IMG/VR virus record: IMGVR_UViG_3300032770_000018
Coordinates: 1-64,000 of that record
Length of the DNA stretch: 64,000 bases
Reading direction: 5' to 3' (one strand)
Source: a virus
This document shows, piece by piece, positions 10,759 to 16,660 of this stretch. Under the pieces are notes generated by a model, which saw only the letters and a list, made by a program, of their open reading frames with translations, was not told the DNA's origin and did not search any database. Position numbers and translations under genes: made by a program. How positions within the stretch are numbered: the stretch's first letter is position 1; every line of letters begins with the position of its first letter.

Positions 10759-11781
10759 CTAGGCCACCGGCCATACGATGGAATTTCCCAAGGCTGCAAT
10801 CATTTTTGAGCGAAATCGCTTAGGTATTCCAGACTGTACCCTTGCAGCCAAAGAGTGAAGGCCAACTGGAGCGCGGCGAACGACGGACCCTCCTTTGCCA
10901 TCGGGGCAGAGCAGCCATTGGAAGTCTCCCCAATGGCCCAATGCAAAGAGTCTATCAGCTCGGTTGAGTGGCCCTTGCGGCCTTCCGGTCTGCACGGACC
11001 GCCCTGAGTGCTCGCGTTGGCCGTCGGCCACAGGCTGGCTTTCAGGCTCAGAATATGTTCCGCCCGCGTCCCATCGGTCTGATTCGCCAGGGCCTCTTTG
11101 AGTTGCGCCGGCATCGGCATTCCGCCCTGGGCGAATTTGCTCACTCTGCCGCCCGACGGACTGACCGCCGTGCCCCACAAACTCGCCTTGAGTTGGTTGG
11201 GAAGCGAGTCGTTCACGTACCAAACACGCTGCGTCTGGCCTTTCCAGTCCCGGCTTCGGCACGTTGCCCAGTTCGCCATTGCGATGCCCGATAATCCAAA
11301 TTCTCTCCCGGTCTTGTGGCGAATCAATGGCACAAGCCGGTATAGAGACCGGTTGGACCTCGTAGCCGAGCCCCTCCAACTCAGCAAGGATTCCGTCGAG
11401 CCCCACGTCGAGGAGGCCAACAACGTTTTCAAAACAGAACCAAGCGGGCCGGATAATCGAACACACGGAAACAGCCTGAGGCCAGAGCCAACGCACATCG
11501 CTTTCGCCTCCTTGGTTCCCGGCTCGACTGGCGCTTTGGCAAGGAGGACTTCCTGTGAGCAGCCAGGTTCGGCCGGCGTATTCCTCTGATGGGAATGATT
11601 CGACGGCGCGGTAACAAGGGCACCCCCAAACTCTTTCAAGCCCGGCTGCGAGCCATTCTTCTCTTTCGCAAAGAGCGATCGTTGTGAGTCCGTTTGCATG
11701 GGCGGCTAGCGGCCAGCCCCCAATCCCGGAGAAGATGTCAACGTGTGTCCATGGTGAATTTTCATGTGGCAGGATCGGCAT
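10759..11781 (-). CDS. DNA (cytosine-5) methyltransferase, alpha polypeptide
   Basis: Motifs I FSGIGG, IV GSPPCQ, VI ENV, VIII QDRERIW, X LGNSI; motif IX absent from this frame. Confidence 0.9.
   Translation of the reverse strand: MPILPHENSPWTHVDIFSGIGGWPLAAHANGLTTIALCEREEWLAAGLERVWGCPCYRAVESFPSEEYAGRTWLLTGSPPCQSASRAGNQGGESDVRWLWPQAVSVCSIIRPAWFCFENVVGLLDVGLDGILAELEGLGYEVQPVSIPACAIDSPQDRERIWIIGHRNGELGNVPKPGLERPDAACLVRERLASQPTQGEFVGHGGQSVGRQSEQIRPGRNADAGATQRGPGESDRWDAGGTYSEPESQPVADGQREHSGRSVQTGRPQGPLNRADRLFALGHWGDFQWLLCPDGKGGSVVRRAPVGLHSLAARVQSGIPKRFRSKMIAALGNSIVWPVA
10800..11699 (-). CDS. C5-methyltransferase beta polypeptide in alternative frame (TRD + motif IX)
   Basis: 299-codon ORF nested in the MTase; WATCRSRDWKG/WPTA repeats and FTLWLQGYSLEY motif-IX-like end. 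Confidence 0.7.
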   Translation of the reverse strand: MQTDSQRSLFAKEKNGSQPGLKEFGGALVTAPSNHSHQRNTPAEPGCSQEVLLAKAPVEPGTKEAKAMCVGSGLRLFPCVRLSGPLGSVLKTLLASSTWGSTESLLSWRGSATRSNRSLYRLVPLIRHKTGREFGLSGIAMANWATCRSRDWKGQTQRVWYVNDSLPNQLKASLWGTAVSPSGGRVSKFAQGGMPMPAQLKEALANQTDGTRAEHILSLKASLWPTANASTQGGPCRPEGRKGHSTELIDSLHWAIGETSNGCSAPMAKEGPSFAALQLAFTLWLQGYSLEYLSDFAQK

Positions 11782-12677: not shown

Positions 12678-13604
12678 TCAGTGGGCGCAGATGCCGGCGC
12701 CCAGCGGAAGTTCTTTCAAGGCCCATAGGTCGTCGGGGATGCGCCCTTGTTTATCGGGCTTCCGGCCGTAGTCCTGCTTGAACCACACGGCGCACTGATG
12801 GGCCTGGGCATCACGCACCAGGTTTATCAGGAGGTCAACTCCACGGTCGCGGAAGCTGGGCCCGCTCTCGCCGCCGACGACGATCCAGTCCAGGTAATGG
12901 GAGCAGCTTACCTCTTCGTCCTGGAGAAGCTCGCTGAATCCGAATGGCTCGAGCAGTGGCTCAGCGCTGCACCAGGTGACCAGCGCCGGGATGTGCTTGG
13001 CGATGTCATGCCGCTCACGCCACTCGCGGGCGGTCCCGGCGGTGTAGCCGAACCAGACGTTGGGAGGGGCCTTGCCGCCCAGCCAGGAACGGGCCCAGGC
13101 GACGGCGTCGGCATCGAGCGGGCTGCGGCATTCCTTGACGAGCAGTTCGAGTCCCGGTCGCCAGAGCTGCGGGCGCTTGGTCAGGAGCAGCCAATCCAGG
13201 CATGGCGAACTGCGGATGGCATTGACCACGCGCAACAGGCAGGCCGAGCGGGCCATCCAGTGGCCGTCGAGAGTGATCGCCCCGGCCGGCATGGCGTCGA
13301 ACGGGTCGATCAGGCTCATGAAGATGCGGCGGCGCTCGCCGGCTTTGGCGGCCGCGCGGTTGAGCCGCTCGACCCCGTCGGAGAAGCCCTGGGTGAGGAC
13401 GCGCGGCGCGTGGTCTCCCCAGACCGGGCGCGTGTCGTAGTCGTCTATTCCGGCCAGGCGGTAGGCTTCCCGGATGCGGGCTGAGTAGAACTTGCCGGTC
13501 ATCGCTTCGCTGTAGCAGTTGGTGCAACAGGCGTCCACTTTCGAGCACACCAGCCAGGGAGCCAGCGTGTGGTGCGCCCAAGGAACTTTGGAGTCTTTGC
13601 TCAT
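12678..13604 (-). CDS. DUF5131 / phage Gp37-Gp68 family radical-SAM-like protein
   Basis: CSKVDACCTNCY, LLLTKRP, SAEPLL, WIVVGGESG, WFKQ. Confidence 0.9.
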   Translation of the reverse strand: MSKDSKVPWAHHTLAPWLVCSKVDACCTNCYSEAMTGKFYSARIREAYRLAGIDDYDTRPVWGDHAPRVLTQGFSDGVERLNRAAAKAGERRRIFMSLIDPFDAMPAGAITLDGHWMARSACLLRVVNAIRSSPCLDWLLLTKRPQLWRPGLELLVKECRSPLDADAVAWARSWLGGKAPPNVWFGYTAGTAREWRERHDIAKHIPALVTWCSAEPLLEPFGFSELLQDEEVSCSHYLDWIVVGGESGPSFRDRGVDLLINLVRDAQAHQCAVWFKQDYGRKPDKQGRIPDDLWALKELPLGAGICAH

Positions 13605-15073
13605 AACGGTTTCTGGAAAATCAGGACTTCCTCGTAGTCAATCCTCGGCGAACCCTTCTTCTCGGCCAGCCGACGGAAGAAGCTCTTGCGGGATTTGGTT
13701 TCGAGCGTGCCGTCCTGCTCGAACAGGTCGTTGTGGCGCTTCTCTTTCACGAGCATCGCGTGAATGCGTTCGAGTGGGGTGAAGCCGATGTGTTCGAGGA
13801 GTCGGGCGGTGTCGTCGCAGAGGGGGACGCGCTGGCGATTTTTGATATAGTCCTTCACAACTAAGCAAATGATGCCGCCGGGTTTGATGGCGCGAAAGCA
13901 GGCGCGGTAAACGGCGTCAACGGCCTGCCAGTAGGTCTCACCGGATTCCTGGCCGATCTGGCCTTCGGTATTTCCGTATTCTTGGTCCTGCCGTCTCGCC
14001 AAGGCTGCAGCGCGCGCCGTCTCGCTCGCTGGATGCCCCTTGCCATTGTGGGGAACGAAATTGAACTTGCTCGCCTTCATTGAGCCCTCTTGATCCTCAA
14101 ACGGCGGACTCGTTACCACGCCGGCCACGGTTCCAGATTTGAGGCGCGAGATTTGCCCGTCTGTCGCGCCGTAGCGTTGGTCAGCGTTCTGGCTGGCGAG
14201 CGTTGCCGTGCGACCCGATTGCTGGCCGGGATGCTTGGCGGGCTTCGTGTTCAGGCCACCGGCGCCCGCCGCAATGTCGGAGTAAGGCGGCGATGAAACC
14301 ACCGCCGAAACCGTCCCCAATTTCAGCGTCTCGATATTTCCATCAGTCCTCTCCCCGGCGAGCCCCTGGTAAGTTCGGTTGCCGACCATGTCCGGTTTGT
14401 CTGGAGCGCCGTTCAGTGGCGCGGCGTATTTCCGCCCCGGTGCCGGCACGTAGCCTTTGACATTGATCCCGCCGCCGCCTTTCCCGCTGGTCTCGGCATA
14501 CGGCGGACTCGCAATCACCGCCCCAACCTTGCCCGAGCGCAGGCGTCCGATTTGGCCGGCTTCCTCGCCGTATTCCGCGTGGCACGAAACCCCCTTACTG
14601 TGATTCTGTCCAAGTTCCCCGTTCTGCTTCGCCTTCTCCCAGTCAATCCCGTCCTGTTGAGCGCGTAGTGACTCCGAATACGGCGGACTGGTGACGATGG
14701 CGCCGGCGCCCGCAATCACTTCATCGAACTGCCGCGAGTCACCCTGGACGATCACTGGCATCGGCGCGTTCAACTGGCCCAGCCGGTAGGCGTGCAGGGC
14801 GAAGTTGTCTTGGGCCATCTTTACAAAACGCGGTTCCAGTTCGCAGCCTACCCAGGCCAGCCCGCGATAGGCAGCGATCACCCCGCCGGTGCCGATGCCC
14901 CCAAAGCAGTCCACAACCGTGTCGCCTTTCGAGAGCCAGCCGCGCTCGATGCAATGGTCGAGGATGCGCTCAATGAGTCCGCGCGAGAACTTGGCTGGGT
15001 GAGCAAAGCTCTCCGACGTGATAAAGCCGTCCCAGCGGGAGTCGTAACAGCCGTGCCAGATGATGGGTTTCAT
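13601..15073 (-). CDS. DNA amino-methyltransferase (N4C/N6A) with four repeated SPPY/F modules
   Basis: HPAKF, DCFGGIGT (motif I), GCELE, SPPY x3 plus SPPF, IKPGGIICLVVKD. Confidence 0.85.
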   Translation of the reverse strand: MKPIIWHGCYDSRWDGFITSESFAHPAKFSRGLIERILDHCIERGWLSKGDTVVDCFGGIGTGGVIAAYRGLAWVGCELEPRFVKMAQDNFALHAYRLGQLNAPMPVIVQGDSRQFDEVIAGAGAIVTSPPYSESLRAQQDGIDWEKAKQNGELGQNHSKGVSCHAEYGEEAGQIGRLRSGKVGAVIASPPYAETSGKGGGGINVKGYVPAPGRKYAAPLNGAPDKPDMVGNRTYQGLAGERTDGNIETLKLGTVSAVVSSPPYSDIAAGAGGLNTKPAKHPGQQSGRTATLASQNADQRYGATDGQISRLKSGTVAGVVTSPPFEDQEGSMKASKFNFVPHNGKGHPASETARAAALARRQDQEYGNTEGQIGQESGETYWQAVDAVYRACFRAIKPGGIICLVVKDYIKNRQRVPLCDDTARLLEHIGFTPLERIHAMLVKEKRHNDLFEQDGTLETKSRKSFFRRLAEKKGSPRIDYEEVLIFQKPL

Positions 15074-15077
15074 CGCG

Positions 15078-15584
15078 CTAAAACGGGATCTTGCTCTTTA
15101 CCTCAGCCGAGTGATTTCGATGCGGCACCCCTCTTCGCCGGGCGCGACCCTTACCACCGTCCACGACCCCGATACCAAGTCGTTCACCGAGTCGTCTTCG
15201 GGTAGCCGTGATAACATCGCAAAGAGTTTCGAGCGCACCCGTTGGGTCCCGTCGCTGCCGGTTTGACACATAATAAGTAACTGCGATTCTAAACTCTGGA
15301 TGGCCTTCTCCATCCATTCCTGAAACTCCGGGGATGTAATCAGGAGCGGCCTCTTGAGCGGCCTCCCGTTCGGCAACTTGGTGATCCACCGCTTGGAATT
15401 CTTGAAGCTTGGGATGTGGAAGTTCGGCGCCGACGATTGGGCCTCTGGTTCCCACTTCTTGCGCATTACCCGCGGAGCCTGGATTCGCTTTAGCTCCAGA
15501 ACGAGCGGCTCGCCTAAACGACCCGTCGGACTGCTGAACAAATCCCCGGGCAAGCATTGAGGCTCTGAGTTCATCGGAGGTCAC
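15078..15584 (-). CDS. RusA-like chain B in overlapping frame (central strand + RRD helix)
   Basis: GTG coupled to the upstream stop; FRIAVTYYVSNRQRRDPTGALETLCDVI. Confidence 0.65.
   Translation of the reverse strand: MTSDELRASMLARGFVQQSDGSFRRAARSGAKANPGSAGNAQEVGTRGPIVGAELPHPKLQEFQAVDHQVAEREAAQEAAPDYIPGVSGMDGEGHPEFRIAVTYYVSNRQRRDPTGALETLCDVITATRRRLGERLGIGVVDGGKGRARRRGVPHRNHSAEVKSKIPF
15098..15574 (-). CDS. rusA: RusA-like Holliday junction resolvase, chain A (N-terminal and C-terminal elements)
   Basis: IPSFKN...ITSPEFQEW and LPEDDS...GCRIEITRL match the RusA termini. Confidence 0.7.
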   Translation of the reverse strand: MNSEPQCLPGDLFSSPTGRLGEPLVLELKRIQAPRVMRKKWEPEAQSSAPNFHIPSFKNSKRWITKLPNGRPLKRPLLITSPEFQEWMEKAIQSLESQLLIMCQTGSDGTQRVRSKLFAMLSRLPEDDSVNDLVSGSWTVVRVAPGEEGCRIEITRLR

Positions 15585-16078
15585 TCGCATTTCTCCGGCA
15601 ACGCCTTGAACCCGCCCTCCTTGAGCGCCTGATAGAAGGTGCGTTCCCCGTCCCACGCGTAGGGCAGGAACACTTCGCGGTACTCGGCCTGCTTCATTTG
15701 GATCATGGACATCTGGACCTCGATCCAGTCTTGAACAATCTTCCAAGCCGTGCGCTCGGCCTGCTGCGCAAAGTCGGACTTACGCTTTTTCTTATGGGGG
15801 CTCCACGCCAAGGATTTCCCGTCCGATGATAGCTGTTCGCCATTGGCGTAGTTCAGCCAGAGTGCGTCCAGTGCCTTCTCTTTGTCGGCGGGAATGCGAA
15901 TCGTCATGCGCGGCGCGCCTTGGTCTGGCTGAATGTGGAAGGTGATGGCCGAAATCTCGCCGTTGGTACCGCGGTACTCCTTGGTGATCCCGCTCACCCC
16001 GCACCGAATTAGCACCTGCTCAATGCGGTAGATGGTCTGGCTTACCGGCACGTTGCTGGTGTAGTTCTTGAGGAACAT
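15581..16078 (-). CDS. conserved hypothetical phage protein
   Basis: KNYTS...QAERTAWKIVQDWIEVQ...EVFLPY pattern. Confidence 0.75.
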   Translation of the reverse strand: MFLKNYTSNVPVSQTIYRIEQVLIRCGVSGITKEYRGTNGEISAITFHIQPDQGAPRMTIRIPADKEKALDALWLNYANGEQLSSDGKSLAWSPHKKKRKSDFAQQAERTAWKIVQDWIEVQMSMIQMKQAEYREVFLPYAWDGERTFYQALKEGGFKALPEKCE

Positions 16079-16108: not shown

Positions 16109-16660
16109 CTACCTCGCGGGCTCCGGCGCGCGTTTGCGCACCCGGATTTCGCAAATCATCCCGGCCTTGAAGGCAGCGGGGTAGAACACGTCGGCCAGCG
16201 CCATCACCGATGGCACCTCCTCCGGGTCGTCTGGGTCGGCGTCAATATAGACCTTGATCTTGTCGCACTGGCGCTCGAAGGACAGTGGCATCTCGCGGTC
16301 GAACACCAGGGAGGTCGCCCGGCGAATCTGTTCGAGCAGGCCGTCCACGTCAAACTGCGGGTCCTGCTGGAACTCCCGCGCCGGCTCGGGCGAACCGACC
16401 AGCCCCTCCTCGAGCAGGATTTGCGCGTCGTAGCCTCCAAGCTGGCCGGCGCGCGCCGCCAGGTACTTGATGGCCTTGATCTGCCGCCCGGATTTTCCGC
16501 AGACAATTTTGAAGTCCGCGCGGTGGGGAATGACAGTGATTGCCACGTCGCTGCCATCCACGGCTTCCAGGATACGGCAGTCCGCCGGGTAGCGGCACAG
16601 GCCAAGAATCAGTGGGGCGATGGCCTTGCTAAGCGGGTGTTTCAGGTCTTCACGTTTCAC
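16109..16660 (-). CDS. KH-domain RNA-binding protein (KhpA-like N-terminal domain)
   Basis: ...ITVIPHRADFKIVCGKSGRQIKAIKYL: GxxG loop in a KhpA-like context. Confidence 0.75.
   Translation of the reverse strand: MKREDLKHPLSKAIAPLILGLCRYPADCRILEAVDGSDVAITVIPHRADFKIVCGKSGRQIKAIKYLAARAGQLGGYDAQILLEEGLVGSPEPAREFQQDPQFDVDGLLEQIRRATSLVFDREMPLSFERQCDKIKVYIDADPDDPEEVPSVMALADVFYPAAFKAGMICEIRVRKRAPEPAR

Follow-up and report, generated by a model that had tools for sequence, protein, structure and literature searches.

Two conserved, overlapping reading frames of an uncultured-phage locus appear to carry complementary parts of a RusA-like fold

The window analysed here is a stretch of 64,000 nucleotides of viral DNA (positions 1 to 64,000 of IMG/VR record IMGVR_UViG_3300032770_000018), which is part of a complete phage record of 78,136 bp with direct terminal repeats. 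Two open reading frames of this stretch, ORF A and ORF B, lie over each other on the minus strand (Table 1). ORF B runs in the –1 frame over the whole of ORF A and projects beyond it by 10 nt on the upstream side and 20 nt on the downstream side; its frame is one base behind that of ORF A, the first base of a B codon being the third base of an A codon. Frame B is open from 15078 to 15746. The likely start codon of ORF B is a GTG that overlaps the TGA stop codon of the upstream gene (GTGA); the homologous position is an ATG in relatives, and an ATG at position 15590 is an alternative start in the window. A Shine–Dalgarno-like motif lies ahead of the GTG, and GGAGG-like motifs precede the B start in several homologues. 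The ATG of ORF A sits 7 nt beyond the stop codon of the upstream gene, a geometry that is identical in locus L001, and no clear Shine–Dalgarno motif precedes this ATG in the window. The GC content of third codon positions is 0.73 in frame A, which is of the coding type, and 0.48 in frame B. The sequence-only reading of this locus had described two frames that are open across all of it, each with its own start, with B beginning at a GTG coupled to the upstream stop codon, and the ORF coordinates, the overlap of the GTG with the TGA and the GGAG motif upstream bear out this description. The motifs that it had quoted are all present, namely IPSFKN, SPEFQEW, LPEDDS and GCRIEITRL in frame A and FRIAVTYYVSNRQRRDPTGALETLCDVI in frame B. 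A Logan contig with a coverage of about 58x, derived from an independent assembly of the probable source run, is identical at the locus and contains no indel, indicating that the dual frame is not an indel artefact. Assembly error is ruled out as well, the structure being common to many independent assemblies.

Table 1. Coordinates of the two ORFs, their segments and the neighbouring genes in the window
Feature	Coordinates	Strand	Description
ORF A	15098..15574	(-)	ATG 15574 to stop 15098-15100; 158 aa + stop
ORF B	15078..15584	(-)	GTG 15584 to stop 15078; 168 aa + stop
GGAG motif	15593..15596	(-)	Shine–Dalgarno-like; 8 nt upstream of the GTG of B; read from the sequence
B residues 1-25	15510..15584	(-)	Mini-domain, predicted helix and hairpin, pLDDT 92-93
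A residues 23-101	15272..15508	(-)	RusA-like strand 1, PSFKN motif, hairpin and helix 1; frame-A selection, third position most variable; disordered linker in frame B
B residues 96-128	15201..15299	(-)	Region of RusA strand 2, catalytic Asp loop and helix 2; frame-B selection
A residues 102-122	15209..15271	(-)	No amino-acid constraint, yet free of stops; AF2 pLDDT 49-57, lowest of A
A residues 124-157	15104..15205	(-)	LPxDD and C-terminal hairpin with GEEG; frame-A selection
B residues 129-168	15078-15200	(-)	Arg-rich tail over the C part of A; in the clade of the window and a few others
Upstream ORF	15581-16078	(-)	165 aa; stop overlaps the GTG of B; no Pfam or PHROG match
KH-domain (KhpA/B) match, weak	16109-16660	(-)	183 aa; E 3e-4, 21 bits against a cut-off of 32.1
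N6/N4 DNA methyltransferase	13601-15073	(-)	490 aa; PF01555, E 3e-17; several SPPY-type motifs spread along the length
C5 cytosine methyltransferase	10759-11781	(-)	Pfam match covers HMM positions 3-180 of 324, the N-terminal half only
ORF nested in C5 methyltransferase gene	10800-11699	(-)	299 codons, other frame; no Pfam match

The locus lies within a DNA-metabolism module of the phage and adjoins genes for DnaB and methyltransferases. The C5 cytosine methyltransferase gene of the phage contains a nested ORF in another frame, and the pair may be a second dual-frame enzyme of the same phage, similar to M.EcoHK31I. Publicly available gene predictions of this phage (P0001, 122 aa; ESM Atlas record) place the start of A at the internal Met-37 (position 15466, minus strand); with such a start, the conserved first strand of A (residues 23–34) would be lost.

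Conservation and openness hold for both frames. For frame A, 71 close homologues share 50–71% identity over the full length, and the wide A family, in which no Pfam domain is detected, consists of 142 clusters at 50% identity, mostly of 105–135 residues, which match residues 53–157 of A in one stretch. Lys-58, Asp-127 and Asp-128 of A are invariant in both alignments, that of the close homologues (A1) and that of the broad family (A2). Pro-55, Asn-59, Lys-61, Gly-146, Glu-148 and Gly-149 are invariant or kept in at least 90% of the sequences, and among them Pro-55 and Asn-59 are invariant in the close homologues and kept in at least 90% of the broad family. DNA of the relatives, taken from viral and metagenome contigs, retains dual openness in 28 distinct related loci, some of which are merely 30–45% identical in frame A. 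Three profile modules were placed on 37 loci, of which 28 are distinct. With the B block as reference, the modules for the N part (68 bits) and the C part (50 bits) of A fall in frame +1; neither occurs outside frame A, and at each junction there is a slight overlap between neighbouring modules. The locus set was found partly through A-frame motifs, and six loci found through B-block patterns alone have the same arrangement, with frame A open too. In other assemblies, 32 B-frame ORFs have already been called as proteins.

Stop codons are depleted reciprocally in the two frames. Frame B is open across the entire A gene in all ten close homologues, with no stop codon as against 1.7–4.6 expected in each from synonymous shuffles of A, and the +1 frame of the same ten homologues, used as a control frame, contains stops in agreement with expectation (5–11). 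Within the B block, frame A in turn is free of stops in 20 of 20 loci, where 1.2–3.0 are expected per locus when B-synonymous codons are resampled with the family codon usage. This null replaced a permutation of codons within the B block, which is weak since stop-forming codons have already been removed from the block. From the B start to the block, stops are absent in 27 of the 28 loci, as against 0.7–2.5 expected, and downstream of the block in the short forms of B they occur in about the expected number, providing an internal control; since common descent links these loci, P values combined over them exaggerate independence and significance. The depletion of stops in frame B up to the block, and not beyond it, indicates that B is an ORF extending from its own start to just past the block.

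The frame under selection changes along the gene. Minimum substitution counts in a codon alignment of ten homologues, given for A codon positions 1, 2 and 3, are 27, 26 and 50 in the N core (A residues 53–95) and 32, 23 and 44 in the C part (A residues 127–158), whereas they are 9, 31 and 17 in the centre (A residues 102–122). The centre differs from the N core with a chi-square p of 1e-3 and from the C part with a p of 4e-4. Within A codons 108–116, every substitution falls on the second base of the A codon, which is the wobble base of frame B, and all four bases are seen there. The A residues at these codons interchange freely (G/E/A/V and L/P/Q/R), whereas B retains R-D-P-T-G-A-L-E. This substitution pattern indicates that frame A is the one read in the flanks and frame B the one read in the centre.

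The segment of B under selection, referred to here as the B block, follows the pattern [FY]R[VI][ST]V.L.[VF]S[DN].RRRD.[DT]G..[ST]T..D[CV][LI]..A, which is kept in every locus, and it resembles the strand, the Asp loop and a helix segment of RusA. A local RusA HMM matches frame B in 21 of 21 loci at HMM positions of about 44–86 and has no match in frame A or frame +1 of the same 21 loci. A narrow E. coli-type RusA HMM is too specific for the parts of A, and a scan of chimera junctions gives small gains only; the HMM was replaced by a set of 20 diverse RusA sequences used as the hhalign target. Against this target, B alone gives a probability of 93.6 (E 2e-7), and an A-B-A chimera gives 94.4 (E 9e-8), with an alignment that is collinear through the DD motif and the C-terminus of A to RusA position 120. 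A alone and an A-C-A control give probabilities of at most 1, neither of them significant. These comparisons agree with the earlier proposal that the central element of RusA is missing from frame A and sits in frame B. The B-frame profile also reaches proteins named RusA-like by JGI. The B block is related to RusA, and so, it appears, are the parts of A.

In E. coli RusA, Asp-70, Asp-72, Lys-76 and Asp-90 are critical, and the metal site is made of Asp-70, Asp-72 and Asp-91 across the dimer (PMC1636454). Asp-113, Gly-116, Thr-120 and Asp-123 of B are invariant, with Asp-113 corresponding to Asp-70 of RusA, and the equivalents of both Asp-70 and Asp-72 lie in frame B and not in frame A. The Asp-72 equivalent is Asp in most family members, which carry D-x-D-G, and Thr or Ser in the clade of the window (Thr-115 of B in the window). 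The Lys-76 equivalent is Glu in the window (Glu-119 of B) and Ser in most of the family and in the canonical relative L049. The substitution of both residues, which had been noticed from the sequence, thus applies to the clade of the window, most other family members keeping D-x-D-G. Because of the Thr and the Glu at these positions, catalysis may be altered or lost in this clade, and the two substitutions might reflect either a relocated carboxylate or an altered activity.

Frame A carries the flanking elements, and its N and C parts appear to be RusA-like, the N part on the grounds of its motif, its collinearity and a weak structural Z score. IPSFKN of A resembles a PSxN-type motif behind a predicted N-terminal strand and also occurs in the single-frame relatives P0362 and L049. 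Asp-127 and Asp-128 of A correspond to Asp-90 and Asp-91 of RusA, and hhalign aligns them to the DD motif of RusA. When the AF2 model of A alone (pLDDT 76) is compared with 48,161 PDB chains, RusA (1q8r_A) ranks first, with a weak score (Z 4.0, rmsd 3.9, 84 residues aligned), and Foldseek finds no match in the PDB for the model of A.

Conventional searches miss both frames. Neither A nor B matches PF05866, which has a gathering score of 22.8 bits, at E of 1 or below, and the Pfam RusA model has no match in 53 sequences of the A family and 20 B-frame sequences, nor does the RusA model match any of the six frames of the whole phage. Pfam and PHROGs return nothing for A or B, a sequence search of the PDB with the A and B profiles gives chance-level matches only, and the ESM Atlas has no usable match for either protein. 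A tblastn search with A finds no match in a cultured-phage collection, and a search of genome contigs with the A profile finds no relative.

The N-terminal part of B is predicted to form a mini-domain with a motif like [WL]T.[DE][EQ][LYF]...L..KG[FY] (T-x-[DE]-[EQ]-[LYF]...L..KG[FY]). This N-terminal peptide is conserved in frame B, unlike the readings of the two other frames (Wilcoxon p 1.6e-11 and 3e-18, computed over non-independent pairs). The B start lies 7–67 nt upstream of the ATG of A in 25 of 28 distinct loci, and in short-form homologues the mini-domain is encoded mostly upstream of the A start. Residues 30–100 of B, which overlie the ordered N part of A, are predicted to be disordered (pLDDT 47–58). 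Most short forms of B end soon after the block, and the Arg-rich tail, where present, always ends in PF, 14–23 nt past the stop codon of A.

Distant relatives carry the same elements in one frame. L049 and P0362 have the motifs in the order A-N, B-centre and A-C, which in P0362 reads IPAFKNGK, ITDPQKQ, the B-type block and PDD. L049, from a viral contig, and L050 are single-frame forms that pass the Pfam RusA threshold with 34.9 and 46.4 bits, respectively, and P0362, a fully single-frame protein named RusA-like by JGI (22.1 bits), and P0356 (21.8 bits) fall just under it. The single-frame forms (L049, L050 and P0362) are distant relatives only; no close homologue is single-frame, and none is a one-frame RusA with two compensating indels. 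In P0356–P0361, the N-terminal motif and linker of B are followed by the B block, which continues in the same frame into an A-type C part. The linkers of these proteins read as out-of-frame PSFKN (ELQKRQ and SEFQELKK; ELQKxQ-type), suggesting that an A-type N-part ORF overlaps them; this suggestion of an overlapping A frame comes from the out-of-frame signature in the proteins alone, and the DNA encoding them was not found in viral contigs. P0356–P0361 would then be an intermediate with a single frame junction. The single-frame and fused relatives together indicate that A-N, B-centre and A-C make up one RusA subfamily from which the dual-frame genes derive, and the fused intermediate and the fully single-frame forms would thus document the origin of the dual-frame arrangement. 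As a separate observation, in Acinetobacter phage vB_AbaM_YNAF (L041; PP355976.1) the tblastn match spans 151–456 of the locus, of which the annotated RusA CDS (253–474) takes in only the C-terminal two thirds, and the annotated start looks too far downstream.

Complex prediction has been carried out with A residues 20–158 and B residues 88–140. The ipSAE value is 0.72, with 0.70–0.75 in three runs, and the best of three controls reaches 0.00; the mark applied to ipSAE is reached by 58 of 80 solved complexes and by 2 of 110 mismatched pairs. The predicted complexes agree in at least 87% of their contacts, with a partner pLDDT of at least 70. In these models, B residues 99–105 pair with A residues 148–154, and B residues 124–128 pack on A residues 91–96, so that the strand and helix of B are set against the last strand and the first helix of A in a RusA-like pairing. 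Since the structure of RusA has been solved, the score may reflect likeness to a known fold rather than binding of A to B, and the prediction therefore supports A–B binding rather than demonstrating it.

These data lend support to the earlier suggestion of overprinting, made with double frameshifting as its alternative, and it is rather likely that the two overprinted proteins A and B together form a RusA-like Holliday-junction resolvase. We infer that both proteins are made, that they bind each other and that their complex cuts junctions. Ribosomes ending the upstream gene would start either at the overlapping GTG to produce B, which would be translationally coupled to that gene, or at the ATG 7 nt past the stop codon to produce A. 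A would supply strand 1, the PSxN motif, helix 1, the DD motif and the C-terminal hairpin (strands 3–4), its middle being an unconstrained linker, and B would supply the mini-domain, the disordered linker over the N part of A, strand 2, the catalytic Asp loop and helix 2. Upon association of the two chains, the strand and helix of B would fill a gap in the sheet of A, and Asp-113 of B (Asp-70 in RusA) together with Asp-127 and Asp-128 of A (Asp-90 and Asp-91) would form a composite acidic site. It is also fairly likely that one small domain is built in this way from two polypeptides of the same DNA, with interleaved elements and a two-chain active site, and that this arrangement has been stable across a large phage gene family.

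Another explanation, which appears unlikely, is that both ORFs are translated but make no joint enzyme, A being a non-catalytic junction- or DNA-binding remnant of RusA and B an independent small protein such as a regulator or inhibitor. Selection on both frames, the separate folding predicted for the B mini-domain and the loss of the Asp-72 equivalent in the clade of the window would all fit such a pair. However, the residues conserved in B (Asp-113, Gly-116, Thr-120 and Asp-123) are exactly those of the catalytic loop and helix of RusA, and the conserved residues of A include the partner DD pair. Moreover, the B block alone is mostly of low confidence in AF2 (pLDDT 56–69 at residues 91–120 and 82 at residues 121–130), and a sheet strand 2 deprived of its neighbours would have no evident function, judging from the RusA fold.

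It is likewise unlikely that a single-chain RusA is produced through two programmed frameshifts, a –1 shift around A codon 95 and a +1 shift around A codon 124, full-length A and B being by-products. The top hhalign score belongs to the A-B-A path, which is collinear with RusA, and according to the single-frame relatives the A-B-A order is that of the ancestral protein; in addition, resolvases are needed at a low dose, such as inefficient recoding would give. Nevertheless, the data favour two chains over double frameshifting because the ORFs are open beyond what frameshifting needs, no slippery site is conserved, the landmark spacing on a chimeric path is too short, and B possesses a conserved start of its own as well as the N-terminal mini-domain. 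The frameshift model requires neither the openness of A through the block nor that of B through its 5′ part. A nucleotide alignment of 20 loci contains no conserved slippery sequence at either junction, with no invariant heptamer or +1 motif, and the codon of the candidate T-TTN site is ATC in four loci, following the choice between Phe and Tyr in frame B. The wobble bases of B vary freely, and so a conserved stimulatory RNA structure in the block is unlikely. The distance from the catalytic Asp to the DD motif is 17 (16) residues on any chimeric path, whereas it is 20 (19) in 21 of 21 canonical RusA sequences, and 8 codons separate the helix-1 Trp from the beginning of strand 2, whereas 22–24 do so in P0362 and L049, indicating that a frameshifted single chain would be too short. 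Furthermore, the conserved segments of A and B overlap by about 5 codons at the first junction, and the own frame of A carries helix 1 on to residue 102 in the AF2 model. Transcriptional slippage is ruled out, there being no homopolymer run at the junctions.

A single functional frame, with the other kept open and conserved as a by-product of constraint or composition, is hardly credible: although long shadow ORFs are common in GC-rich DNA and part of the conservation in each frame is indeed a by-product (RRL of B derives from DDS of A, and Thr-105 of A from the Asp/Asn codon of B), this explanation is already contradicted by the frame-specific wobble signature that switches along the gene and by the reciprocal depletion of stops, with the control region and the control frame matching expectation, and RusA homology is found in frame B for the centre only, the N and C modules being in frame A only.

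To our knowledge, very few enzymes are assembled from the products of overlapping frames, and M.EcoHK31I is the usual example. If A and B do form one enzyme, the locus would provide a second, independent overlapping-frame enzyme of a different fold, with interleaved rather than end-to-end complementation. With its many natural variants and apparent evolutionary intermediates, the RusA locus would be a tractable system for the origin of overprinting and for the shared constraint between two frames, the ordered part of each frame overlying the disordered linker of the other. Because gene callers report one frame only, for which there is no family match, this putative resolvase family is overlooked in phage genomes. 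Literature searches turned up no description of a RusA that is split or encoded in two frames.

RusA itself (PF05866; E. coli RusA, PDB code: 1Q8R; PMC1636454) appears to share with the present locus strand 1 with PSxN, helix 1, strand 2, the Arg-rich loop with the catalytic Asp, helix 2, the DD motif and the C-terminal hairpin, all in the same order. In the present family, however, 28 distinct loci have these elements split over two overlapping frames, and the Pfam model matches neither ORF by itself. Canonical RusA is one polypeptide of about 120 residues that forms a homodimer, whereas its elements are here divided between two ORFs, and it lacks the N-terminal mini-domain of B. Genes with programmed frameshifts, such as dnaX, prfB and those of the tail chaperones G/GT, share a conserved slippery site, and in them the frame that the ribosome leaves closes soon afterwards. 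They resemble the RusA locus in having functional segments in different frames of one locus but differ from it in that the RusA locus has no conserved slippery site and both of its frames are open. Rz and Rz1 of phage lambda are proteins of overlapping frames that work together as two distinct folds with separate structures, whereas the products of the RusA locus would complete a single domain. The closest precedent, from another enzyme family, is the heteromeric C5 methyltransferase M.EcoHK31I: its alpha gene contains, in a different frame, the coding sequence of the beta chain, which has to associate with the alpha chain (PMC2836561). In both systems, one enzyme fold would be made of two polypeptides from overlapping frames of the same DNA, the association of the chains being established for M.EcoHK31I and predicted for the RusA locus. 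Unlike M.EcoHK31I, the chains of the RusA locus would interleave, with the outer elements coming from A and the inner ones from B; neither ORF is fully nested, as B overhangs A at both ends; and the arrangement is conserved across a large, divergent family of uncultured phages with apparent intermediates.
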